Part shown: in pieces, positions 1 through 11,886 of the stretch | How positions within the stretch are numbered: position 1 is the stretch's first letter | Layout of the letters: every line of letters starts with the position of its first letter | From: a virus | Length of the DNA: 11,886 nucleotides | Virus genome (UHGV): UHGV-2004451 | Direction: 5' to 3' (one strand) | Program-made: the position numbers and the translations under genes | Notes under the pieces: generated by a model | Seen by the model: only the letters and a program-made list of their open reading frames with translations | Told to the model about the DNA's origin: nothing | The model's database searches: none

Positions 1-462
1 TGCTCTCCGCTCCGAAGCACGCGATCCGAGCGGCACGAGACGCTCACTATCGCCGACTCGACCCTTACGATGCTGTTCCGGCAGGAGTTCGAGCGGCAGA
101 TCGAAACGCTCCGCCGAACCGTCGTGGAGTTTTATCCGCCGGCGGAATATCCGGAACCGAGCGACGATCGATTCCCGAATCCGACCGACACGCTCCGTGC
201 CGTTCTTCCGCCTCCGAAGATTCCGGCGGCGAGTGTTTCCCGGCAGCCGGTCAAGCGCATCTCTTATACCGAGGTGTCGATGCAGAACGACCGCACGATC
301 CTTACCGACAGCATTTCGCATAGCCGCATCAACACGGCAGCCCGCAACGACGTGCAGGAGCAGACCGACGAGCAGCCATCCTCCAGTGTCGCATGGCTCA
401 AGTGGGCGACGGCGCTCGTCGCACTGACGCTTCTGCTGCTCTTATTCCTCAAACTCCGATAA
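1..462 (+). CDS. Hypothetical protein with C-terminal transmembrane anchor; possibly the 3' end of a gene starting upstream of the window (alternative start ATG 70)
   Basis: Frame 1 is open from base 1 with no stop before the in-frame ATG at 70, so the true start is either upstream of the window or at 70. Stop TAA at 460-462. The C-terminus WLKWATALVALTLLLLLFLKLR is a single hydrophobic helix. No recognisable catalytic motif. Confidence 0.5.
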   Translation, partial: CSPLRSTRSERHETLTIADSTLTMLFRQEFERQIETLRRTVVEFYPPAEYPEPSDDRFPNPTDTLRAVLPPPKIPAASVSRQPVKRISYTEVSMQNDRTILTDSISHSRINTAARNDVQEQTDEQPSSSVAWLKWATALVALTLLLLLFLKLR

Positions 463-472
463 CCGAACCCTT

Positions 473-1255
473 ATGGCCAGATTGAAAACACCGATTTCAT
501 ACTATGGCGGCAAGCAGATGCTTCTGAAGCATATCCTGCCGCTGATTCCCGAACATACGCTCTATACGGAAGCCTTCTGCGGCGGCTGCGCCGTGCTGTT
601 CGCCAAGCCGCCCGCGCAGTGCGAGGTCATCAACGACACGAACACCGAATTGGTGAACTTCTACCGCGTGGCGCAGACGCAGTATGCGGCACTCAAGGCG
701 ATGATCGACGCGACGCTCCACAGCCGCGAGATACACGCGCACGCACGGCATATCAACGAGCATCCGTCGTTCTTCACGCCCGTCGAGCGGGCTTGGGCGG
801 TGTGGGTCTGCACGAAGTTGGGCTTCGCCTCGATGATCGACGGGACGTTCGGCTACGACCGCAGCGGCACGACGACGCTGAAACTCCGCAATGCGAAAGA
901 AGCCTTCACGGAGGAGTTGTGCAGCCGCCTCGACCGCGTTACGGTCGAGTGCGAGGACGGCATCGATGTCATCCGCCGCTACGACTGTCCCGAAGCGTTC
1001 CACTTCGTCGATCCTCCTTATGTCGGCAGCGACTGCGGACACTACAACGGTACGTTCGACGAGGAGGATTTTTCGCGGCTGCTCGACACGCTCGCGACGG
1101 TCGAAGGGAAGTTCATGCTCACGATGTTTCCGCACGAGAAGATAGAACGCCTCGCCGCCCGGTACGGCTGGACGATCCATCGGCTCGACCGCACCATCAC
1201 CGCCTCGAAAGTCTCCCGCCGCCGGCAGGAGGAGTGGATCACGACGAACTACTGA
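473..1255 (+). CDS. Dam-family (D12-class, alpha-type) N6-adenine DNA methyltransferase
   Basis: ATG start 11 nt after the upstream stop. Motifs appear in the order typical of Dam-like enzymes: YYGGK near the N-terminus, EAFCGGCAV (FxGxG-type AdoMet motif I), NDTNTELVNFY, and the catalytic DPPY (FHFVDPPYVG) near the C-terminus. The overlapping ORFs 497..1348(-) and 619..1302(+) have Arg/Gly-rich shadow composition. Confidence 0.9.
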   Translation: MARLKTPISYYGGKQMLLKHILPLIPEHTLYTEAFCGGCAVLFAKPPAQCEVINDTNTELVNFYRVAQTQYAALKAMIDATLHSREIHAHARHINEHPSFFTPVERAWAVWVCTKLGFASMIDGTFGYDRSGTTTLKLRNAKEAFTEELCSRLDRVTVECEDGIDVIRRYDCPEAFHFVDPPYVGSDCGHYNGTFDEEDFSRLLDTLATVEGKFMLTMFPHEKIERLAARYGWTIHRLDRTITASKVSRRRQEEWITTNY

Positions 1256-1265
1256 TATCGCCCAT

Positions 1266-2225
1266 ATGGAACCGAATACTATCCATACCTGCGACGCTCT
1301 GACCGGTCTTCGGCTGCTTCCCGACGAGTCGGTGGACTGCATCGTCACTTCGCCTCCGTACTGGCAGATGCGCGACTACGGCATCGGCTCGATCGTATGG
1401 CCGGACGGTTGGTCGGGACAGTTGGGGTTGGAACCTACGCGCGAGGAGTTCATCGCGCATCTGTGCATGATCTTCGACGAGTGCCGCCGCGTACTGAAAC
1501 CCTCCGGCACGCTGTGGGTGAACTTGGGCGATTCGTATAGCAAACCATACAAATACAACCGCCGACAAGATCCCAAGTGGAGCGAGAATTCGAAGAACAG
1601 CGATTGCCTTATAGACATCAAGGTCGATACGGTGCGTCACCGTATTCCATCCAAGTCGCTCTGCAATATTCCGAACAAGTTCGCTGACGAAATGATCCTG
1701 CGCGGCTGGGTGCTGCGCAACGAGATCATTTGGTACAAGCCCGCCTGTATGCCCGCCTCCGTGCGGGATCGTTTTACGGTGGACTTCGAGAAGATGTTCT
1801 TCTTTACCAAGTCGCAGCGATACTATTTCGAGCAGCAGTTCGAACCGTATGCCGCTTCATCTTTCGACCGCTATAAAAATCCGGTAACGCTCAACGGCAA
1901 AAGCGAAAAGTATCGCTGCATCAGCGGAAAACCTCACGGACGCCTCGAGATAAATCCTCGCGGTCGCAATATGCGGTGCGTGTGGCGTATCCCTTATGAA
2001 CCGAGCCACGAGGCGCACTATGCCATGTATCCTTCGCGATTGGTCGAGACGCCGATCGAAGCCGGATGTCCCGAAGGGGGACTCGTTCTCGATCCCTTTA
2101 TGGGCAGCGGAACGACGGCAGTCGTCGCCCGACGATTAGGACGCCATTACATCGGCTTCGAACCCAATCCGGAGTATGTCGCAATTTGCGAGAAGAGACT
2201 CGAACAGCAAACCCTCTCCCTTTGA
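1266..2225 (+). CDS. Beta-class N4/N6 DNA methyltransferase (N6_N4_Mtase-type); the SPPY catalytic motif favours N4-cytosine or N6-adenine specificity
   Basis: ATG start 10 nt after the stop of the upstream methyltransferase. Catalytic motif IV SPPY (CIVTSPPYW) is N-terminal and AdoMet motif I (VLDPFMGSGTTAVVARRLGRHYIGFE) is C-terminal, which is the beta-class order. A lower-G+C central segment (about 1540-1700) sits where a target-recognition region is expected. Confidence 0.9.
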   Translation: MEPNTIHTCDALTGLRLLPDESVDCIVTSPPYWQMRDYGIGSIVWPDGWSGQLGLEPTREEFIAHLCMIFDECRRVLKPSGTLWVNLGDSYSKPYKYNRRQDPKWSENSKNSDCLIDIKVDTVRHRIPSKSLCNIPNKFADEMILRGWVLRNEIIWYKPACMPASVRDRFTVDFEKMFFFTKSQRYYFEQQFEPYAASSFDRYKNPVTLNGKSEKYRCISGKPHGRLEINPRGRNMRCVWRIPYEPSHEAHYAMYPSRLVETPIEAGCPEGGLVLDPFMGSGTTAVVARRLGRHYIGFEPNPEYVAICEKRLEQQTLSL

Positions 2226-2226
2226 T

Positions 2227-3003
2227 ATGTCTTCGCATACTTACGACAATCCCGCCTATATCGCTTCGTGCTCGTTCGGCAAGGATTCGATCGCTACGAT
2301 CCTCCTTGCCCTCGAGCACGGCGAGCCGCTCGATGCCGCCGTCTTCTCGGAGGTGATGTTCGACCACTGGCGCAATATCAGCGGCGAGATACCCGAACAC
2401 ATCGAGTGGATCTACTCGACGGCTATTCCGCGTCTTGCAGCCTTGGGCGTACGGGTCGATGTCGTCCGTTCGGAGAAAGACTATCTTACGTTATTCCATA
2501 CGGTCATAGGGAGCGGTACGCATAAGGGTATGCTGCGCGGCTGGCTCATCGGCGGCAAGTGCTGCGCCAACCGCGACCTCAAAATCCGGCCCATACATCA
2601 TTATTACGGTCGTTTCCGCAAGCAGGGCGTCGTGCAGTACGTCGGCATCGCGGCCGACGAACCGAGACGCCTCGCGCGGATGCAGGACAAAGGGTATATC
2701 CGTAAAACAAGTCTGCTCGCCAAGTACGGGTACACCGAGGCGGATGCCCGACGCAAGTGCGAAGAATACGGTCTGCTGTCGCCTCTCTACCGAACCTCGC
2801 ATCGGGGCGGTTGCTGGTTCTGCCCCAACTGCCGCATACCGGTCTTCGCCGAACTGCGCCGCCGACATCCCGAACTGTGGCGCGAACTGCAACGGCTTTC
2901 GAAGGTCGGAAATAAGTCATCCGAAGGCTTCAAATACGGGCAGACTTTCGAGGAGATCGAGCGGAGGATGGATCTCTTCGAACACGCGCCGACGCTATTC
3001 TAA
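2227..3003 (+). CDS. PAPS-reductase / DndC-like PP-loop ATP pyrophosphatase family protein (putative nucleotide or DNA modification enzyme)
   Basis: N-terminal PP-loop-like motif SCSFGKDS (SxGxDS type) and a C-terminal cysteine cluster CWFCPNC. The ATG at 2227 lies 1 nt after the TGA of the upstream methyltransferase (TGAtATG), implying translational coupling. An in-frame ATG at 2176 would overlap the upstream gene by 50 nt and is considered less likely. Confidence 0.7.
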   Translation: MSSHTYDNPAYIASCSFGKDSIATILLALEHGEPLDAAVFSEVMFDHWRNISGEIPEHIEWIYSTAIPRLAALGVRVDVVRSEKDYLTLFHTVIGSGTHKGMLRGWLIGGKCCANRDLKIRPIHHYYGRFRKQGVVQYVGIAADEPRRLARMQDKGYIRKTSLLAKYGYTEADARRKCEEYGLLSPLYRTSHRGGCWFCPNCRIPVFAELRRRHPELWRELQRLSKVGNKSSEGFKYGQTFEEIERRMDLFEHAPTLF

Positions 3004-3007
3004 ATAA

Positions 3008-3090
3008 CTGAAAATAAATATGATAATAGTTGCCGGATAACTTGCGTGTTCCGAATAACGATGTTATGTTTGCAGTACGATAAACAACTG
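3008..3090 (+). promoter_or_regulatory. Promoter repeat copy 1 (Bacteroidota-type -33 TTG / -7 TATGTTTG)
   Basis: An ~82-bp AT-rich element about 95% identical to copy 4. TTG at 3042-3044, a 20-nt spacer, and TATGTTTG at 3065-3072 match the TTTG-N19-21-TAnnTTTG consensus of Bacteroidota primary promoters. The leader contains GATAAACAACTG. It lies directly upstream of gene 3118..3540. Confidence 0.6.
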
Positions 3091-3117
3091 AATAATAAAC
3101 GATTAAAACACCCGAAC

Positions 3118-3540
3118 ATGACAAGTGCACAGGCAAAACAGATCGCATCGAACTATATGCGGCAGCAGAGCGATTACGTATTTTCGGCGGTAACGGTTAA
3201 AAGCCTCGCTCCGGCGAACGGACCAGTTAAGGTGTGGCTCACCACCGAAGACGACTACGGGGACGAACTGATCGTCGAGGTCGAGATGGACCCGCAGTCG
3301 AATGAGATCCGCTGGAAGAAGATCTGCAACACGGGACGCCTATCCGAATATCTGAAGCCGGCTACTCGGATCGATAAACTTTCGGCAGGACAACGCTTCC
3401 GGCTGCAAGGCGACTGCGTGGTTTACGAGTTCGTGGACAATGTAAAGGACCGCAGCAGTATTCCCTATATCATCCGACGGGCGGACCGGTCCGGTTGCGT
3501 ATCGAGAGTCGGATGGCAGGAAGTTTTTCCTATCGAGTAA
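3118..3540 (+). CDS. Hypothetical small protein (141 aa), first gene behind promoter repeat copy 1
   Basis: The ORF track gives 3046..3540, but its GTG start lies inside the promoter repeat (-7 box at 3065-3072). The first ATG downstream of the predicted transcription start is 3118. Balanced amino-acid composition; stop TAA at 3538-3540 is followed by a hairpin at 3550-3576. No recognisable motif. Confidence 0.6.
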   Translation: MTSAQAKQIASNYMRQQSDYVFSAVTVKSLAPANGPVKVWLTTEDDYGDELIVEVEMDPQSNEIRWKKICNTGRLSEYLKPATRIDKLSAGQRFRLQGDCVVYEFVDNVKDRSSIPYIIRRADRSGCVSRVGWQEVFPIE

Positions 3541-3808: not shown

Positions 3809-3819
3809 CGTGTAAGATA

Positions 3820-3901
3820 TTGAAAATAAATGCGATAATAATTGCAGAAAGACTTGCGTGTCCCGAATTATGATGCCATCTTTGCAGCGTGATAAACAAC
3901 T
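3820..3901 (+). promoter_or_regulatory. Promoter repeat copy 2 (degenerate -7 box CATCTTTG)
   Basis: Same element with several substitutions. TTG at 3854-3856, 20-nt spacer, CATCTTTG at 3877-3884, then GATAAACAACT at 3891-3901. Directly upstream of gene 3917..4249. Confidence 0.5.
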
Positions 3902-3916
3902 AATATAGAGCGTATT

Positions 3917-4249
3917 ATGAGTACAAAAGCAAGAATCGGAGTAAGACTTCCCGACGGAAAAATCAAAAGCATCCATATATGGCGGGACGGACATCCCGAT
4001 ACGTTGGGCGAAATGTTGTCTGCGCACTACAATACATTGGAATCGGCAATGGCACTGGTCGAACGAGGCAACATAATCGATGTGGAGGCACGTCTCGAAG
4101 AGTGCCGGTTCGAGAAATCGAATGAACGGTGCGAAACCGAGCCTCGGATTTATAAAACGGTCGCCGCCTACGAACGAGAAATCGAGGAGGATATATGTTA
4201 CAAATATCTCTATCGGGACGGCAAGTGGGAATACCGGGCGGTCGATTAG
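3917..4249 (+). CDS. Hypothetical small protein (110 aa), behind promoter repeat copy 2
   Basis: ATG at 3917, about 25 nt downstream of the predicted transcription start of promoter copy 2. Protein-like composition with a Glu-rich C-terminus. Followed by a structured 3' region containing hairpins at 4285-4302 and 4337-4367. Confidence 0.65.
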   Translation: MSTKARIGVRLPDGKIKSIHIWRDGHPDTLGEMLSAHYNTLESAMALVERGNIIDVEARLEECRFEKSNERCETEPRIYKTVAAYEREIEEDICYKYLYRDGKWEYRAVD

Positions 4250-4469: not shown

Positions 4470-4533
4470 AGTTGTCGATAAACTTGCGCGTCCCGAATAA
4501 TGATGTTATGTTTGCAGTGCAACAAACAATTGA
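4470..4533 (+). promoter_or_regulatory. Promoter repeat copy 3 (core only; upstream part divergent)
   Basis: TTG at 4484-4486, 20-nt spacer, TATGTTTG at 4507-4514, with the conserved core CTTGCGCGTCCCGAATAATGATGTTATGTTTGCAGTGC. The leader motif is altered to CAACAAACAATTG. Upstream of gene 4560..4778. Confidence 0.55.
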
Positions 4534-4559
4534 ACTACAATCTATTAAACGACTCGATC

Positions 4560-4778
4560 ATGAATACTGCGAATCGAAAAAGAACGGAGATCGACGCCGA
4601 ACTCGACCGGTTGGAGGTCGAATTCGAAAAGAACCGTAAGGAGATGCAAGGCCTTGCCGACGAGAACAGACGTGCCGGCAACCGCTACGGCGAATTATCG
4701 AATGCGAATCACGACATCAACAACCGGATCCTCACATTGCTCGCTGAGCGTTGGGAATCGGAAGAGACGGCTGATTGA
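4560..4778 (+). CDS. Hypothetical small coiled-coil protein (72 aa), behind promoter repeat copy 3
   Basis: The ORF track gives 4500..4778, but that start lies inside promoter copy 3 (-7 box at 4507-4514). The first ATG in the leader is 4560. The sequence is charged with heptad-like spacing (EIDAELDRLEVEFEKNRKEMQGLADENRR). Stop TGA at 4776-4778 is followed by a GC-rich hairpin. Confidence 0.55.
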   Translation: MNTANRKRTEIDAELDRLEVEFEKNRKEMQGLADENRRAGNRYGELSNANHDINNRILTLLAERWESEETAD

Positions 4779-5096: not shown

Positions 5097-5106
5097 ACCT
5101 AATTTA

Positions 5107-5188
5107 CTGAAAATAAATACGATAATAGTCGCCGAACAACTTGCGTGTTCCGAATAACGATGTTATGTTTGCAGTACGATAAACAACT
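5107..5188 (+). promoter_or_regulatory. Promoter repeat copy 4 (near-identical to copy 1)
   Basis: TTG at 5141-5143, 20-nt spacer, TATGTTTG at 5164-5171, leader GATAAACAACT at 5178-5188. About 4 mismatches to copy 1 over 82 bp. Directly upstream of gene 5204..5491. Confidence 0.6.
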
Positions 5189-5203
5189 AAAAAAGAGCGA
5201 ATT

Positions 5204-5491
5204 ATGAGAACGAACATCGAACGGTTTTTAGAGAGATTCCCGAAGAATGCCACGAATTGGGCGCAGGCGACGGACGAGGTGCGCGACATGGCTCGCAAGG
5301 CTCGCGAATTGTTGGAAGAGTACGAAGGCGTCATCGTCGAACCGGTAAATTTCCGGGCTATCGAGACCCCGGCCGAGTGGAATACCGAAGGTCGCGAGTT
5401 CATCCTGACGAATTTCGATCGCATGGCGGATAGGACCAAAGAGCGCTTCTACGACTACTTCCGCGAGTGGTTCGAAGGCGAAGAGGAATAG
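5204..5491 (+). CDS. Hypothetical small protein (95 aa) with acidic C-terminus, behind promoter repeat copy 4
   Basis: ATG at 5204, about 25 nt downstream of the predicted transcription start of promoter copy 4. C-terminus is FREWFEGEEE. Stop TAG at 5489-5491 is followed by a perfect 14-bp hairpin at 5500-5536. Confidence 0.65.
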   Translation: MRTNIERFLERFPKNATNWAQATDEVRDMARKARELLEEYEGVIVEPVNFRAIETPAEWNTEGREFILTNFDRMADRTKERFYDYFREWFEGEEE

Positions 5492-5594: not shown

Positions 5595-5672
5595 CCATCA
5601 GTTGTTTATTGCAGCCGGAGCCGCATCATGTGCGGCTCCGGCAATCTCATTATAGAGGGACTTTGTTTCAGC
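5595..5672 (+). repeat. Conserved structured 3' element, copy B
   Basis: CCATCAGTTGTTTATTGCA, then the same hairpin core, then GGGACTTTGTTTCAGC. About 85% identical to copy A with a structure-preserving substitution in the stem. Confidence 0.6.
5614..5642 (+). terminator. Hairpin (core of conserved 3' element copy B)
   Basis: GCCGGAGCCGCA-TCATG-TGCGGCTCCGGC: a perfect 12-bp stem. Homologous to the 4337-4367 hairpin, with a compensatory T-A to C-G change at the loop-proximal pair. Confidence 0.5.
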
Positions 5673-5716
5673 GATGAGGCCTTTTGCCATTTTACCTTTA
5701 TTCCCGCGACAAAGGT

Positions 5717-8581
5717 ATGGCGATTTTCGGTCTAAAATATTACGCTGAACTTCGCTCGAAGTACAAGGGCGTTTTGTGGCGCGTGGAGATTTCGGAGCGG
5801 GGGTACGCAGGTCCGTCGGAGGAGATGGCCTTCGACGGCGGTACGCCGTTGCAGATTACGTGGGAGAAACGGGGCGACGAGTTCTACGTGCCGGTCAAGG
5901 CTTCGGAGGCGACCATCAATATCCTCTGCAAGGAGAATTTCCATTACCTGGCTCTGTTCACCTCCGATCCCCGTTATTTTCGCGTCTCGATTTTCCGCAA
6001 TCGGCAGCTCTATTGGCGGGGCTACGTCACCTCCGACCTCTACTCCGAGAACTTCACCGCTCCGCCCTATACCGTTACGATCAAGGCCGTGGACGGCTTC
6101 AACCTCTTGTCGAGCATTCCGTTCCGCGACCTCGTACATATCGGCATCGCGGGCAGGCGGTCGCTATGGGAACTGCTCTCCTCCTGCATCGACTTGTTGG
6201 AGTTGGATCTCGATACGGCGGACTGGATGGATCTGTATGTCGAGGGCATGGACGAGAACGCCTCTTCGCTCCGTCAAACCTATATCGACCTCGAACGGCT
6301 CTACTACGTCTACGAGGAGCCTACCTATCGCGACATCCTCGAACTGTGCCTGCGTCCGTTCGCCGGACAGATCTTCCAGTCGAACGGTGCCCTGCATATC
6401 CGCCGCGCCGTATCGCTCTACCGAACTGCCCGTCCCGTGAATTTCTATCGCGTCGGCACGGAGCATCCCGTCGGGCGGATCGTTACGGGCAGCGGACTGC
6501 GGCTCGTGATCCATACCGGTGCGCAGGTCGTCACATCGGCTGCACGCGAGCGCATCGACGGCATGTGGACGGGCGACCTGCACATCGAGGGAAGTTCGAC
6601 GCTCGACATCGTCCCTGCGCTGCGCAAGGTCTCGGTCGATGTAAAGAACAAGAGCCTCGACAACCTGATCGCCCGCATCGGGTTCTACGATCCCGACGCT
6701 TGGACGGATCCGCACGGCTTCGTCTCCGTGAAGAGCGGAGAGGAACTCTATTTCAGCGGCGAGGATGCCTATCGGGGTGCGGAAGTCGTAACTCGGGGCT
6801 TTCCCGTCGAGCAGTGCAACTTCCCGCTCGTATGGGAGTTCGGGTTGCAGACCTACCATCGGGAGTGGGGACTGGGCATTTACCGCCCGAACGAAAGCGT
6901 CGATGTCGCGGTGCATTACGGCGTCCGCATCGTCGGCGAAAAGGCGACATACAGCCTCGCCGAGAGCGGTTCGTGGGTGCAGTCCTCCGACGGGGAGATC
7001 GCGAGTACGGTCAAGACCGGCAACGAGCAGAACATGAAGATCGAGATCGACGGCATCCCCTGCGACGGCGAGTGGCGGTTCTTCGTCCGGCAGACGCTCA
7101 TCGGCAAGATCACGACCTATACCGACCGCTTCGGCAATCCGAGCGGCCGCACTTCGGGCTATATGGAGAGCGCCGCGTTCCGCAAGATGACGCTCTCGAT
7201 CGATGCGGGCGACAGCTACGACAAGGGTTTGCGCTACGAGTCGCTCGTCGATCCCGCGAACAATGTCGATATGTCCGTAACGCTTCCCGTGAGCGATATT
7301 CCCGCCATTCCGAACGACCGGCTGCTCTATGCGCTCTACTACCTCGATGCCGCCGGCAATCCCACGCGCATCTGGCATACGAAAGGTCGGAACGACTACG
7401 ACACGCTGGTCGGTCATATCGTGCAGGGAGCATTGCGGTACAAGCAGCTGCCGAGCCGGCGCATCACGGGCGAGATCTTCACGGGGCAGCATATCGATAT
7501 GAATACGGTGGTTCGGGACGACAAGTTCCTGAACGCCGCCTATTACCTGAACTCCATCGAACTGAATGCCCTCGACGACTCCTACAACAGCGAACTCACG
7601 GAGATGCCGCGCCTGCTCGCAACGGAGAGACCGCCGGAGGGCGACGACTGCATAGCGGTCGCGACGCTCTCCTTCACGGTCGGCAAGGCGATCCGCTGCC
7701 TGAACCGTCTGCTGCTCCAGTCCGTCGATAAAAAGACGGTCTATGCCTTCGACACCGCCACGCGGCAGGTACGGGAGATCTACCGCAGCACGGCATCCTT
7801 CGAGATGTACGAGGCGGACGAGGGTTTCGTCGCGGTGGACGGGAAAGGGGTCCGCTACCTCGACTATCGCGGTACGGTCGAACGGATATATACCCCGCCG
7901 GAGGAGTACCGCAACGTCGCGACCTACATGGACGGATATATCCATATCCTGAAATCCTACCGGCAATATATCGGTCCGCGGGGCGGCGATGCCGGCGGAC
8001 GCAGCGCCCGCACGGCAGAGGACGAGGATCCGAACTATCGCACCTATCGTTACCTCTCGCGCCCGGAGTGCAAGTACATTTCGCCCGATGCCTCGACCGG
8101 ATATCGCGGACGGGGATATGCCTACGAGGGTACGCCGATGTCGGGTGCGATCCTCGCCCTGCGGCGTACGGAAAATACGATCGTCGTGAATACCTCGCAT
8201 GGCGCCTATCTGCACGACAAGCGGTTCCACCAGCCCTGTAAGATGCTGCAATTCGCTGCGGGCGAGCAGATCGTCACCGTCTCCGACAACTATATCGGCA
8301 TCAACGCCGACGATATGCTGTGGTTCTATCGGCGGGATTCGATTACCGAGCGGACGCTGCTCCGGCGGTTGGGACGCTGGGCGGATCACGCCGACCATAC
8401 GATGAGCGAGGTCGTACACTCCTACGACGACGGCATCTTCATCCGGAACTTCCGCGACGACACGACGACCGACGTTCGGAACGCCGCCGGCTGGGGCGAG
8501 AACATCATGGGGCTGTTTTTCATCTGCGGCGACCTCTATATCGTGCGCGAACGGGCGATTTACAAATACATTCCTGAATAA
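5717..8581 (+). CDS. Large hypothetical protein (954 aa from the first ATG; 965 aa if the TTG at 5684 is used); possibly a virion or tail-associated structural protein
   Basis: This is the only one of three overlapping long ORFs with protein-like composition (aromatic-rich, balanced). The overlapping 5776..7731(+) frame is Arg/Gly-rich and 6164..8854(-) is Ser/Arg-rich, both typical shadow ORFs of GC-rich coding DNA. No Walker A or other catalytic motif was seen. The gene lies in the same + strand block as the tape measure gene. The function call is inference only. Confidence 0.75.
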   Translation: MAIFGLKYYAELRSKYKGVLWRVEISERGYAGPSEEMAFDGGTPLQITWEKRGDEFYVPVKASEATINILCKENFHYLALFTSDPRYFRVSIFRNRQLYWRGYVTSDLYSENFTAPPYTVTIKAVDGFNLLSSIPFRDLVHIGIAGRRSLWELLSSCIDLLELDLDTADWMDLYVEGMDENASSLRQTYIDLERLYYVYEEPTYRDILELCLRPFAGQIFQSNGALHIRRAVSLYRTARPVNFYRVGTEHPVGRIVTGSGLRLVIHTGAQVVTSAARERIDGMWTGDLHIEGSSTLDIVPALRKVSVDVKNKSLDNLIARIGFYDPDAWTDPHGFVSVKSGEELYFSGEDAYRGAEVVTRGFPVEQCNFPLVWEFGLQTYHREWGLGIYRPNESVDVAVHYGVRIVGEKATYSLAESGSWVQSSDGEIASTVKTGNEQNMKIEIDGIPCDGEWRFFVRQTLIGKITTYTDRFGNPSGRTSGYMESAAFRKMTLSIDAGDSYDKGLRYESLVDPANNVDMSVTLPVSDIPAIPNDRLLYALYYLDAAGNPTRIWHTKGRNDYDTLVGHIVQGALRYKQLPSRRITGEIFTGQHIDMNTVVRDDKFLNAAYYLNSIELNALDDSYNSELTEMPRLLATERPPEGDDCIAVATLSFTVGKAIRCLNRLLLQSVDKKTVYAFDTATRQVREIYRSTASFEMYEADEGFVAVDGKGVRYLDYRGTVERIYTPPEEYRNVATYMDGYIHILKSYRQYIGPRGGDAGGRSARTAEDEDPNYRTYRYLSRPECKYISPDASTGYRGRGYAYEGTPMSGAILALRRTENTIVVNTSHGAYLHDKRFHQPCKMLQFAAGEQIVTVSDNYIGINADDMLWFYRRDSITERTLLRRLGRWADHADHTMSEVVHSYDDGIFIRNFRDDTTTDVRNAAGWGENIMGLFFICGDLYIVRERAIYKYIPE

Positions 8582-8591
8582 GTGCGAAACT

Positions 8592-8966
8592 ATGGAAACA
8601 CTATCCATCATTCTGAACTTCATTCTTGCCAGCGGGTTGGCGGGAACGATCCTCTTTTTCAACGCGAAGAAGCGCAAGGAGAACGCGGCCGCCGACTCCG
8701 CCGAATTAGCGAACACGGAGAAGGTCGTGGCGATCCAATCCGAGCAGATCACGCGGCTGGACGGGCGCGTGGAGAAACTCGAAGAGAAGGTCGGCAAACT
8801 CGAAATCATCATCGAGCACAAGGACGTGGAGATCGACCGCAGCCGCATCGTCATCCGACAGGCCTACAAGTGCGAAACGCCGCCCGAACATTGCCCGGTC
8901 TTGCTCAAAAGAGCCGAGTTGGAGCGCAAGCGCAAAGAGACCGACGAAAATAACCGAAAATCATAA
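8592..8966 (+). CDS. Small membrane-anchored coiled-coil protein (124 aa); i-spanin-like or holin-like architecture
   Basis: ATG 11 nt after the upstream stop. N-terminal hydrophobic helix SIILNFILASGLAGTILFF followed by a charged heptad-like region (RLDGRVEKLEEKVGKLEIIIEHKDVEID). Two Cys near the C-terminus. The competing 8582..8953 frame is an Arg-rich shadow. Confidence 0.6.
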   Translation: METLSIILNFILASGLAGTILFFNAKKRKENAAADSAELANTEKVVAIQSEQITRLDGRVEKLEEKVGKLEIIIEHKDVEIDRSRIVIRQAYKCETPPEHCPVLLKRAELERKRKETDENNRKS

Positions 8967-9015
8967 AGCGATGAGCAGAGGACTGAATAATTGTAACCGA
9001 CGCCGCGGAGCGAGA

Positions 9016-9039
9016 GCAGAACCCGCTTGCGGGCTCTGC
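9016..9039 (+). terminator. Hairpin in the intergenic region after gene 8592..8966
   Basis: GCAGAACCCGC-TT-GCGGGCTCTGC: an approximately 9-bp stem with one A-C mismatch. Weak evidence. Confidence 0.3.
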
Positions 9040-9099
9040 CGAGCCTCAAGGAGGAAACGATTGCTACAATGACATTCCGGAACGAATAACACAGATATT

Positions 9100-9522
9100 A
9101 TGAACGAGAAAACTTTGCCGAGAGGGATGCGCAATCGTAATCCCGGCAATATCCGCCGGTCGGCGACGAAGTATCTGGGCGAAGTTGCGCCCTCGCGCGA
9201 TGCCGCATTCAAGCAGTTCGAGACGATGGCGTGGGGCTACCGCGCGATGTTCGTGCTGCTGGACTCCTACTCCCGCAAGGGCTACCGGACAATCCGGCAG
9301 ATGATCTCGCGCTACGCTCCGCCCATCGAGAACCATACCGAAAACTATATCCGTTGTGTGGCCGAATGGTCGGGTATCGGCGCCGACGAGCCGGTCGATA
9401 CGCAGGCGGGCGAGACGATGATTCCTATCGTGGCGGCTATGTCGCAGGTGGAAAACGGGCAACCGGCGGTACTATCGGACGTCGAGGCGGGCTGGACGCT
9501 CTATCTGCAACACAAACCCTAA
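9100..9522 (+). CDS. Hypothetical protein (140 aa) immediately upstream of the tape measure gene
   Basis: ATG at 9100; stop TAA at 9520-9522 lies only 6 nt before the tape measure start. Protein-like composition with the N-terminal motif RNRNPGNIR. Function not recognised. Confidence 0.65.
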   Translation: MNEKTLPRGMRNRNPGNIRRSATKYLGEVAPSRDAAFKQFETMAWGYRAMFVLLDSYSRKGYRTIRQMISRYAPPIENHTENYIRCVAEWSGIGADEPVDTQAGETMIPIVAAMSQVENGQPAVLSDVEAGWTLYLQHKP

Positions 9523-9528
9523 ACAGCC

Positions 9529-11886
9529 ATGTCCCGGAGAATCGCCGATTTACTTATAAAGATCGGAGCCGACTCGTATGAGTTCCAACAGAAGGCGCAA
9601 CAGGTCGAGAAAGGACTCGGCTCGCTCGAAAAGAAGCTGACCTCCGTCGGCAAGTCGCTCTCGCTGAAGCTCACCGCACCCCTTGCTGCATTGGGCGGCG
9701 TGTCGCTGCACCTGGCCGATGTGCAGGCCAAAGCCGAGGCGAAGGTGCAGCAGGCGCTCAAGGTTACGAATCAGGCCGTCGGTTACAACTTCCGGCAGTT
9801 GGCCGACTACGCTTCGGAGTTGCAGGGCAAGACACTCTTCGGCGACGAGACGATCCTCGACAAATCCACCGCCCGCCTGTTGGCTTTTACTAACATCACG
9901 GGCGAGAACTTCAAGCGTACGCAGGCGTTGGCATTGGACCTCGCCACGGCGTTGGAGATGGATTTGGGTTCGGCGTCGTTGCAGTTGGGCAAGGCGCTCT
10001 CCGATCCCGCGACGAAGCTCTCGTCGCTGTCGCGTGCCGGTATCGCCTTTTCCAAGGAGCAGACGGAGGTAATCAAGAAGCTCGCCGAGACGGGCGACAT
10101 AGCCAAAGCGCAGGCGATGATCCTCGACGAGTTGGAGCGCAAGTTCGGCGGGCAGGCCGAAGCCGCCGCACGGACGGGACTCGGCACCGTGCAGCAGCTC
10201 AAGAATGCGTGGGGCGACTTCCTCGAACGGATCGGTGCGGCCATCATGCCTTTCGCGACGAAGATAGCGGGTGCGCTCTCGACGGTCGTGCAGATGCTGC
10301 AATCGATGTCGCCGGCGATGATGCAGACGATCGTCGTCGTGGCGGGGCTGGTGGCTGCGATCGGTCCCCTTTCGCTCGGAATCGGCGCCGTGATCAAGGT
10401 GCTGCCGATGCTGGCGGCGGGATTTACGGCTCTGTTGTCGCCCGTCGGATTGATTATGGCGGCGGTCCTCGCGCTCGGTGCGGCATTCGCCTACGCCCGC
10501 CTCCAGAAGCAGAAGATGATCGACGAGATGGCCGAAACCGAATCGCTCGACGAGCTCGAACGCAAGTTGCAGGAGAATATCGCCGAGCAGAAAGAGATCA
10601 TCGCCACGACGACCAAGACGCGGATGGTTCCGAATTTCGGTGGATTGGTCGCCGGATTTATCTTGCAGAAAGTCCCCGACGAATCGAAACTCGCACCCCT
10701 GCGCAAGGAGTACGATCTGCTGACGGCAGCGATCGAAAAGAAACGCGAAACGGAGAAGAAGGCGGCCGAGGCGCAGGCCGAACTGGACAAGGTAACGGAC
10801 GAGGCTCGCAAGCAAACCGAGGAGTTGATGAAGTCCATCGCCGGAACCAACGCGCAGACGGAGCAGAGCACGGGCATCATCGGTAAATTGCAGGCGCGGA
10901 TCGAGGCCCTCGAAAAGAAGAAACTGCTGCCCGAATCGACCGTCGAGGATATCGCTGCGGCGAATGCCGAGATCGGGAAGCTACAAAAAGAGCTGGAGCG
11001 GATCCGAAATATCAAGCCCGAAGACCTGAAGCCCGTCGTCAAGATGGACGGTATTCTGCCCGCGGGCTTCGAGTTGGAACTGCCGGCTCCGAAACTCAAA
11101 ATGGGCGATCTGAAACCCGTAACATCGCAATATGCGCAGCAGATGCAGGCGATATTCGGTGCGGTGCGCGAAGGGCTTTACGGCTGGGCGGACGACAACA
11201 GCGCATACTTGCAAAATAACCTCGCCGATACGGTCTCGATGGTCGAGAACTACACGACAGCGCTGACGGCGAAGGGCTGGTCGTTCTCGGCGGCATTGGA
11301 GCATGTCCACGCCACGATTGCGGAGGTGATGACACGCTTCGATCAGCAGGTGTCGAAGTTTATGGCCGACAGCATCGTCGCTGCGGCGGAGGCTATCGGG
11401 CAGATCATCGCCGGCGATTTGGGATTCGGAGGGCTGATGAAAGCGATTCTGACGCAGTTCGCCAATTTTCTGAAAAATATCGGCTCGCAGCTCATCGAGT
11501 TCGGCGTGATGATCATCGCCTTCAAATCGGCGTTGAGATCCGTCCTCGCTAACCCGTGGGCGGCGATCGCCATCGGTGCAGCAATGGTCGCGGCAGCAGC
11601 CGTGATGACGGCGCTCATCAACAAGAATGCGCAGGAGAGCGTGCCGGCATTGGCCAACGGCGGTCTGGTATACGGTCCTACCTATGCGATGGTCGGCGAC
11701 AATCCCAATGCCGGTACGGATCCCGAAGTCATCGCTCCGCTGTCGAAGTTGCAGGCGATGCTCCCGACAGGCGGCAGCGCGCAGAACCTACGAATAACCC
11801 TCGGCGGTCAATTGACTGCCAAGGGTCGGGATTTGGTGTATGTTCTCGGAAAAGAGAACTTCAAGTCAGAGGTGCTGGGTGGGTGA
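9529..11886 (+). CDS. Phage tail tape measure protein (785 aa)
   Basis: The N-terminal region matches the conserved tape measure core signature as I recall it (LGKALSDPATKLSSLSRAGIAFSKEQTEVIKKLAETGDIAKAQAMILDELERKFGGQAEAA). It is followed by long Gly/Ala-rich hydrophobic segments (IMPFATKIAGALSTVV...GLVAAIGPLSLGIGAV and AIAIGAAMVAAAAVMTALI) and an extended Glu/Lys-rich coiled-coil region. Stop TGA at 11884-11886 coincides with the window end. Minus-strand and off-frame ORFs inside it are GC-shadow artefacts. Confidence 0.85.
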   Translation: MSRRIADLLIKIGADSYEFQQKAQQVEKGLGSLEKKLTSVGKSLSLKLTAPLAALGGVSLHLADVQAKAEAKVQQALKVTNQAVGYNFRQLADYASELQGKTLFGDETILDKSTARLLAFTNITGENFKRTQALALDLATALEMDLGSASLQLGKALSDPATKLSSLSRAGIAFSKEQTEVIKKLAETGDIAKAQAMILDELERKFGGQAEAAARTGLGTVQQLKNAWGDFLERIGAAIMPFATKIAGALSTVVQMLQSMSPAMMQTIVVVAGLVAAIGPLSLGIGAVIKVLPMLAAGFTALLSPVGLIMAAVLALGAAFAYARLQKQKMIDEMAETESLDELERKLQENIAEQKEIIATTTKTRMVPNFGGLVAGFILQKVPDESKLAPLRKEYDLLTAAIEKKRETEKKAAEAQAELDKVTDEARKQTEELMKSIAGTNAQTEQSTGIIGKLQARIEALEKKKLLPESTVEDIAAANAEIGKLQKELERIRNIKPEDLKPVVKMDGILPAGFELELPAPKLKMGDLKPVTSQYAQQMQAIFGAVREGLYGWADDNSAYLQNNLADTVSMVENYTTALTAKGWSFSAALEHVHATIAEVMTRFDQQVSKFMADSIVAAAEAIGQIIAGDLGFGGLMKAILTQFANFLKNIGSQLIEFGVMIIAFKSALRSVLANPWAAIAIGAAMVAAAAVMTALINKNAQESVPALANGGLVYGPTYAMVGDNPNAGTDPEVIAPLSKLQAMLPTGGSAQNLRITLGGQLTAKGRDLVYVLGKENFKSEVLGG

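Follow-up and report, generated by a model that had tools for sequence, protein, structure and literature searches.

A Dam-like methyltransferase, a beta-class methyltransferase and an SspD-like PP-loop enzyme as probable anti-restriction cargo in a gut Alistipes prophage

Positions 473-3003 of an 11,886-nucleotide (nt) stretch of the UHGV virus genome UHGV-2004451 carry three genes for proteins that probably act on DNA. We refer to the whole stretch as the window and number positions from its first letter. Two of the genes encode DNA methyltransferases (methylases) and the third a PP-loop enzyme with the fold of 3'-phosphoadenosine 5'-phosphosulfate (PAPS) reductases. The locus is a known sort of phage anti-restriction cargo and no new system, orphan methylases being ordinary in phages; the SspD-like enzyme is the moderately interesting part of it. 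The genes lie as follows:

473..1255, + strand: gene 1, a D12-class (alpha, Dam-like) N6-adenine DNA methyltransferase of 260 amino acids (aa) (PF02086, phrog_56)
1266..2225, + strand: gene 2, a beta-class N4/N6 DNA methyltransferase of 319 aa (PF01555, phrog_67, PADLOC MTase_II)
2227..3003, + strand: gene 3, an SspD-like PP-loop ATP pyrophosphatase of 258 aa with the PAPS-reductase fold (phrog_424, PADLOC SspD)

Between the TGA stop of gene 1 (1253-1255) and the ATG of gene 2 at 1266 lie 10 nt, and a single nt separates the TGA stop of gene 2 (2223-2225) from the ATG of gene 3 at 2227. A head-to-tail trio with gaps of 10 nt and 1 nt had been described in an earlier note on this DNA, and the coordinates of the open reading frames (ORFs) and the sequence agree with it. 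An alternative ATG for gene 3 at 2176, which would give a 50-nt overlap with gene 2, was rejected because the start of homologues lies some 10 residues ahead of YIASCSFGKDS and because public gene calls give a protein of 258 aa.

The product of gene 1 matches PF02086 over residues 10-218 (E 1.6e-21; 77.6 bits, cut-off 22) and phrog_56 (1.3e-63), and its best solved relative is DpnM (6.4e-8). Motif I, FCGGC at aa 35-39, is N-terminal to motif IV, DPPY at aa 180-183; the third glycine of motif I is also missing in T4 Dam. Gene 2 matches PF01555 (E 4.8e-49; 167.7 bits, cut-off 26.7), phrog_67 (5e-70) and the PADLOC MTase_II model (4.8e-81). Here SPPY (motif IV, aa 29-32) precedes FMGSG (motif I, aa 278-282), which is the beta-class motif order, and SPPY is retained across the gene 2 clade down to 32% identity. 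The product is predicted to be an N4-cytosine enzyme, probably producing N4-methylcytosine (m4C); the solved relatives of gene 2 comprise both N6-adenine and N4-cytosine enzymes. The claim that two methyltransferases of different classes lie side by side is therefore borne out, PF02086 with DPPY standing against PF01555 with SPPY before motif I. Inactivation, which had been allowed for, was checked as well, and the S-adenosylmethionine (AdoMet) and catalytic motifs are intact in both enzymes.

Gene 3 has its PP-loop, SFGKDS, at aa 16-21, and shows the SGGxDS-type loop after the first strand and the Rossmann-like fold of the PP-loop ATP pyrophosphatase superfamily. It matches phrog_424 'PAPS reductase' at 5.8e-32 and, over residues 113-244 (profile positions 85-219 of 277), the PADLOC SspD model at E 1.6e-12, a model that has no curated cut-off; all 48 family members tested match SspD, the best at 4e-27. 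The DndC and BrxP models gave no match to gene 3 at E <= 0.1, and among the 48 relatives one matches DndC and one BrxP. In Pfam, gene 3 has no match at E <= 0.01, and neither the protein nor the family profile found anything meaningful among PDB sequences. Describing the protein as a PAPS-reductase/DndC-like PP-loop enzyme was thus right as regards the PP-loop and the fold and needs amending in two respects, since it is nearer to SspD than to DndC and falls under the PAPS_reduct threshold.

The family to which gene 3 belongs is large (4100 proteins at E <= 1e-5) and has the invariants SxGKDS, GGxC, a K..P motif, QYxGIAxDExxR and RGGCWFC. Its conserved cysteines are C112, C196 and C199. A fourth cysteine moves: the window copy has CC at 112-113 with Leu at 118 (window 2560-2580), the majority of relatives pair C112 with C118, and in some C112 has no partner. 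The three conserved cysteines together with C113 or C118 are compatible with an iron-sulfur (Fe-S) cluster, which the gene 3 protein probably binds.

Where the family occurs is as informative as what it looks like. We surveyed the neighbourhoods of 68 clusters (90% identity) of the PP-loop family. Beta-class methylases and single-stranded DNA-binding protein (SSB) turned up most often inside 2.5 kb of the PP-loop gene, in 13 clusters each, and the density of D12 or beta methylases was 0.63 per 10 kb within 2.5 kb versus 0.20 farther off (binomial p = 0.003; 17/68 clusters). In an IMG/VR contig (L096 2737-5712), a single ORF joins a complete C5-cytosine methylase, with the motifs FDGAGG, PCQ, ENV, QRRKR and GNSLAIP, in frame to an SspD-like PP-loop domain with SGGKDS and CWFCPN. 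The gene 3 family is enriched near DNA methylases and elsewhere fused to them. A second apparent fusion, the 450-aa Dam::PP-loop protein P0014 from a contig of a metagenome-assembled genome (L010 1306-2658), was dropped as Rosetta-stone evidence because it is a decaying deletion derivative, with DSPY in place of DPPY and a PP-loop part shortened by 42 aa. The 5.5-kb circular single-stranded DNA microvirus OM869548 (Sigmofec virus UA08Rod_5397) encodes a PP-loop homologue (L002 1845-2606; 38% identity, E 1e-44) placed between its capsid and replication-initiator genes and annotated as hypothetical; the short PP-loop contigs that we fetched held no further microvirus.

In many virome papers the cysH genes of phages are counted among the auxiliary metabolic genes for sulfur. 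Read in that way, gene 3 would encode a genuine PAPS/adenosine 5'-phosphosulfate reductase (CysH) that serves sulfur assimilation and is unrelated to the methylases. PF01507 (PAPS_reduct) does have weak matches in 45 of the 48 relatives, the best at 9e-9, but every one of the 48 matches SspD better, and gene 3 itself reaches 12.1 bits against a cut-off of 22.5, over residues 12-40 at the PP-loop N-terminus only. TM-scores of the gene 3 protein to CysH are only about 0.47-0.5. CysH carries a C-terminal catalytic cysteine in an ECGLH-type motif. In the gene 3 family no conserved cysteine follows C199 in CWFC (C202 is variable, and the tail of gene 3 ends ...HAPTLF), so a CysH-type catalytic tail is absent. 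The link to DNA methylases, by proximity and by fusion, and the carriage of a homologue by a 5.5-kb microvirus also speak against sulfur assimilation, as does the neighbourhood of gene 3, which holds no cysC, cysD, cysN or sulfite-reductase genes. We therefore consider a role as CysH improbable.

The element that bears the trio could be identified from its wider context. PHROGs matches in the window include a tape-measure protein, a lysozyme-like protein and a virion protein. Megablast of the entire window against GenBank phages gave no match. The three proteins occur in identical form in more than 3000 assembly blocks of public data, among them contigs of more than 200 kb with portal, capsid, tail, tape-measure and integrase genes. 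The element is a very common temperate prophage of gut Alistipes/Rikenellaceae with several cargo hot spots, and its genes are ordered as follows:

Part 1: portal, S78 protease, (N6_Mtase/Eco57I methylase + BsuBI/PstI endonuclease), capsid, connectors, (AbiEii + antitoxin, reverse strand), tail tube, three small genes
Part 2: Dam, beta-methylase, PP-loop, six small genes, 954-aa protein, 124 aa, 131 aa, tape measure
Part 3: (PLD/RE_NgoFVII-like nuclease, reverse strand), 712 aa, DUF285, Bacteroidota-type integrase

Directly upstream of gene 1 the window holds the end of a further gene:

1..462, + strand: 3' part of the upstream gene, with a C-terminal hydrophobic tail (ORF in the window at 70-462)

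In public contigs the full-length product is 169 aa (L014 425-934); it has no Pfam or PHROG match, and across the prophage family its gene is the last conserved tail-region gene before Dam. It ends at 462, 10 nt before gene 1, and the tight array therefore extends leftward and is longer than three genes.

Comparison of related loci shows that the three genes differ in how firmly they belong to this prophage. In almost every related prophage locus the tail genes are followed by the Dam-like gene, which is a conserved member of the phage family at a fixed position. Loci anchored on the PP-loop gene had at first suggested Dam plus PP-loop as a conserved core pair: relatives of at least 73% identity that reach upstream all have a Dam-like gene there, next to the PP-loop gene if no beta-methylase is present, and the beta-methylase itself occurs in only some of them. 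Portal-anchored loci corrected that picture, most of them having Dam alone. Among the related prophage loci, 24 contain Dam and extend at least 2 kb beyond it (near-duplicates included). Of these, 20 lack both the beta-methylase and the PP-loop gene, two carry just the PP-loop gene, one carries the beta-methylase (this locus ends soon after) and one carries both. Where both are lacking, what follows Dam varies: DUF3825, DUF4268, a C5 methylase, an Mrr-type endonuclease accompanied by a Schlafen-like helicase, or unknown genes. The site directly 3' of Dam is thus a cargo hot spot, at which the lineage of the window holds two co-oriented cassettes. The first of these has sharp boundaries:

1258..2239, + strand: 982-nt indel cassette bearing the beta-methylase (blastn of L119, L121 and L122 against L014)

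Its breaks lie at L014 1729/1730 and 2711/2712, that is, window 1257/1258 and 2239/2240, and close relatives in which Dam directly precedes the PP-loop gene have about 18 nt in its place. Locus L120 has an approximately 1-kb insert between Dam and the beta-methylase with an extra 283-aa ORF (L120 8064-8915) that contains LLPTPTVSD and has no Pfam match; the junction between these two genes is therefore itself an insertion site. Relatives of the beta-methylase were located in Alistipes/Rikenellaceae genomes. As for the earlier notion of a three-gene module, the tight same-strand array is real, but it is no fixed unit: Dam is conserved, the beta-methylase rides on the indel and the PP-loop gene is optional.

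Inside the trio, sigma-70-type promoter-like and terminator-like sites are no commoner than in shuffled sequence. The first candidate transcription signal on its 3' side overlaps the end of gene 3:

3001..3128, + strand: promoter-like intergenic cassette, the first of four, containing TATGTTTG (= TAnnTTTG); seen through repeat families D1 and D2 and by alignment

The four cassettes, of about 100-130 nt and 60-80% identical, lie at window 3001-3128, 3813-3940, 4470-4570 and 5100-5227, each before a small gene of no known function. Three of them carry TATGTTTG, which fits the Bacteroidota -7 consensus TAnnTTTG, with matches at 3065, 4507 and 5164. Together they look like a serially duplicated promoter that would drive a series of small cargo genes; the first of them, at 3001, is predicted to mark the 3' end of the transcription unit that holds the trio. 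On the + strand of L017, the stretch from the capsid promoter site to this first cassette is free of TAnnTTTG. Because of this, and because signals within the trio are lacking, we infer that the trio is co-transcribed late with the head-tail genes.

The absence of a partner endonuclease had been a central claim of the earlier note. Scanning the larger ORFs of the window with Pfam and PHROGs revealed no nuclease family, and no nuclease that could make the trio a type II restriction-modification (R-M) system lies inside or adjoining 473-3003. This part of the claim stands, yet it is partly an effect of where the window ends, for two nucleases lie just outside:

L014 12454-13506, - strand: PLD/RE_NgoFVII-like nuclease, 96 nt past the right end of the window and about 9.5 kb downstream of the methylases (public contigs with identical proteins)
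L017 1607-4034: PstI-like R-M pair (N6_Mtase/Eco57I gamma-class methylase and BsuBI/PstI endonuclease), about 6-8.4 kb upstream of the window, between prohead protease and capsid genes

Next to the PstI-like endonuclease stands a methylase of its own. In a 27-kb segment of the prophage CTGCAG occurs once against 14.3 expected, and CTAG is absent against 20.6 expected. GATC is not depleted (observed/expected 0.88), and GGCC, AGCT, CATG and ACGT are depleted about 2-fold, which we regard as weak evidence.

For the other nuclease a split R-M system can be imagined, in which one methylase of the trio would protect against the prophage's own PLD/NgoFVII-like endonuclease and the two would serve superinfection exclusion. 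The endonuclease has no adjacent methylase, all contigs seen with it bear both methylases, and the prophage has other defense cargo in its PstI-like R-M pair and AbiEii, all of which would fit. Its homologues (24-55% identity), however, are solitary, with no methylase beside them, in all four other neighbourhoods checked, two on plasmids and two on gut contigs, which is rather the pattern of a stand-alone or modification-dependent nuclease. The place it occupies, after the tape-measure gene, is a swap hot spot where relatives have an AbiJ-like gene, a weak sub-threshold Peptidase_U49/Lit-like match (L164), or unknown genes. One such relative, L120, keeps the beta-methylase at 96% identity and has the AbiJ-like gene at the nuclease site, and Dam is found across the family whether or not the nuclease is present. 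Conversely, none of 20 genome loci of beta-methylase relatives holds or adjoins a homologue of the nuclease; in several loci these relatives adjoin D12 or C5 methylases, with no recognisable endonuclease beside them. The comparison is asymmetric in that a single nuclease-carrying lineage entered it. On this evidence a split system is improbable. Both methylases appear to be orphans, and the evidence, which covers one nuclease-positive lineage, speaks against either nuclease being cognate, without amounting to proof.

A further alternative is lysogenic conversion: the methylases might remodel the epigenome of the host or protect its chromosome, and the PP-loop enzyme might serve the host, for instance in tRNA thiolation or cofactor chemistry. 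The prophage is temperate and loaded with defense genes, a setting that such a role would suit. The trio, in contrast, is co-oriented with the late structural operon, packed into it and devoid of a promoter motif of its own, and defense cargo at the same hot spot tends to lie on the opposite strand (L207, L242). The fusion of the PP-loop family to DNA methylases also points to DNA as its substrate. We hold lysogenic conversion to be unlikely.

There is a close published precedent for cargo of this kind. In podophages of Vibrio crassostreae, a PAPS-domain::Dam fusion (p0018) together with one small gene confers escape from host Dnd (bioRxiv 10.1101/2021.05.05.442762; Piel et al. 2022, Nat Microbiol). 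The alternative allele there consists of Dam and an N4/N6 methylase, and swapping the alleles switches host range (bioRxiv 10.1101/2021.05.05.442762). A 2026 Nucleic Acids Research paper cites the Vibrio case as a phage PAPS reductase evading Dnd (PMC13551039). The locus described here shares with the Vibrio cassette a Dam-like enzyme, an N4/N6 beta-class enzyme and a PAPS-like PP-loop protein in a phage, as swappable cargo with no cognate endonuclease and a proposed role in anti-defense. It differs in that the PAPS domain of the Vibrio phages is fused N-terminally to Dam, with the Dam and N4/N6 pair as an alternative allele, while here three separate genes stand together; the host belongs to another phylum; and the likeness considered here is one of gene kinds. 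The Vibrio type of linkage between PAPS domain and methylase is seen as adjacency in the window and as fusions elsewhere.

More broadly, proteins with PAPS-reductase domains insert sulfur in the phosphorothioation systems Dnd, Ssp and BREX-4, which are frequent in gut Bacteroidota and depend on a partner nucleoside triphosphatase (PMC12914056). SspD is the best-matching defense family, with a PP-loop in both proteins and a similar size (about 260-280 aa), but the match is limited to residues 113-244, gene 3 is phage-borne and its family often solo, and there is no SspB nickase, SspC ATPase or SspA desulfurase within the approximately 27 kb of prophage inspected. DndC and BrxP share with gene 3 the PP-loop/PAPS-reductase superfamily, conserved cysteines suggesting an Fe-S cluster, and the link to DNA modification; the gene 3 protein, on the other hand, is much shorter and without DUF4007 or a ferredoxin-like extension, and the same 27 kb holds none of the partners DndD/E or BrxC/Z/L. 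The known anti-Dnd protein JSS1_004 was also considered and set aside as a kinase/shutoff protein unrelated to gene 3. The methylases resemble orphan phage methylases such as Dam of T4 or P1 and those of multi-methylase phages, which are late-expressed, free of an endonuclease and pre-protect phage DNA; a difference is that gene 1 is under the dam subfamily cut-off.

Late-expressed, self-protective DNA modification, carried as cargo by a temperate prophage, is the best explanation of the locus, and we favor it with moderate confidence. We propose that the trio forms the 3' end of the late head-tail operon. The Dam-like enzyme, predicted to make N6-methyladenine, would be the conserved component, and the hot spot behind it would have gained the SPPY beta-class methylase (probably m4C) and the SspD-like PP-loop/Fe-S enzyme. 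Expressed late, the two orphan methylases could modify replicated phage DNA before packaging, so that on entry into a new host the packaged DNA might already resist type II restriction enzymes with two specificities, two being suggested by the two methyltransferase classes. The PP-loop enzyme might act on DNA alongside them. Its chemistry would most likely be an ATP-dependent, adenylation-based sulfur modification of phosphorothioate type, or interference with such modification, and this step could let the phage escape the phosphorothioate-based Dnd, Ssp and BREX-4 defenses. The methylase part of this proposal is well supported. Its PP-loop part we infer from homology, from the link to methylases and from a single genetic precedent in the literature; co-transcription with the late genes, the targets of methylation and each step of the PP-loop chemistry are likewise proposals. 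What the data show directly is the identity of the genes, the intactness of their motifs, the orphan state of the methylases, the structure of the cassettes, the distribution of the family and its linkage to methylases. In arguing for self-protection rather than R-M, the earlier note was right about the lack of an adjacent cognate endonuclease, and the phage context and the Vibrio precedent add to its case; what it had left aside is that a temperate prophage with defense genes may also use such enzymes as a lysogen.

Several observations weigh against this proposal. The first concerns the company that the PP-loop enzyme keeps. Three quarters (75%) of the PP-loop clusters have no D12 or beta methylase inside 2.5 kb, and solo homologues occur between terminase and portal genes, next to SSB or MazG in replication modules, and in the 5.5-kb microvirus; on both counts the enzyme needs no such methylases. 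Nor does the prophage supply the partners that known phosphorothioation calls for (PMC12914056), since a DndD/SspC-type ATPase, SspB/DndE and a cysteine desulfurase are all missing from the approximately 27 kb inspected. The assignments of the methylases themselves call for caution. For N4-cytosine enzymes SPPY is a rule of thumb only, and 9c3u, the closest solved relative of gene 2, has DPPY. Gene 1 scores 74.6 bits against TIGR00571 'dam' (cut-off 114.85) and 15 bits against PRK10904 (441), under the NCBI dam subfamily cut-off, which leaves GATC a candidate target. Finally, in a temperate element loaded with defense genes, action of the methylases in the lysogen is also possible.

Two further readings bear on what the PP-loop enzyme does. 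It could make a base hypermodification, for example by 7-deazaguanine-type QueC-like chemistry or amidation, and leave the backbone alone. Its QueC-type matches, however, are exceeded by those to PAPS reductases and TtuA, SspD is its nearest family by sequence, and the 27 kb inspected hold no FolE, QueD, QueE, DpdA or transglycosylase genes. Hypermodification is accordingly very improbable. The other reading takes the stand-alone SspD-like enzyme to be a minimal, self-sufficient DNA modifier. It would borrow a methylase (Dam-like, beta-class or C5; by adjacency or by fusion) for sequence recognition and install a phosphorothioate or another adenylation-dependent, non-methyl mark without DndD/SspC-type ATPases, on which all characterised phosphorothioation systems depend. 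We put this forward as a speculation that is unlikely to be right. If it were true, the phage genes counted by the thousand as 'cysH/PAPS reductase' auxiliary metabolic genes would be an anti-defense family of DNA modifiers that has been misread.

Self-protective modification has consequences for annotation and for experiment. The comparative evidence favors placing at least this large SspD-like branch with DNA modification and anti-defense and not with sulfur-cycling genes. The locus is also tractable: it sits in a very common human gut Alistipes prophage with natural variants in gene content (Dam only; Dam and PP-loop; Dam, beta-methylase and PP-loop), whose comparison could assign function gene by gene.

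Farther along the prophage, a block of about 10.5 kb (window ~5641-11886 and beyond; L014 6113-16666) is inverted in L119-L122 and L164 relative to the window. No inverted repeats of at least 16 nt flank it. From the 954-aa protein at one end to DUF285 at the other, the inverted block takes in the tape measure, the nuclease site and the gene for the 712-aa protein; one of its breakpoints lies near window 5641-5647.

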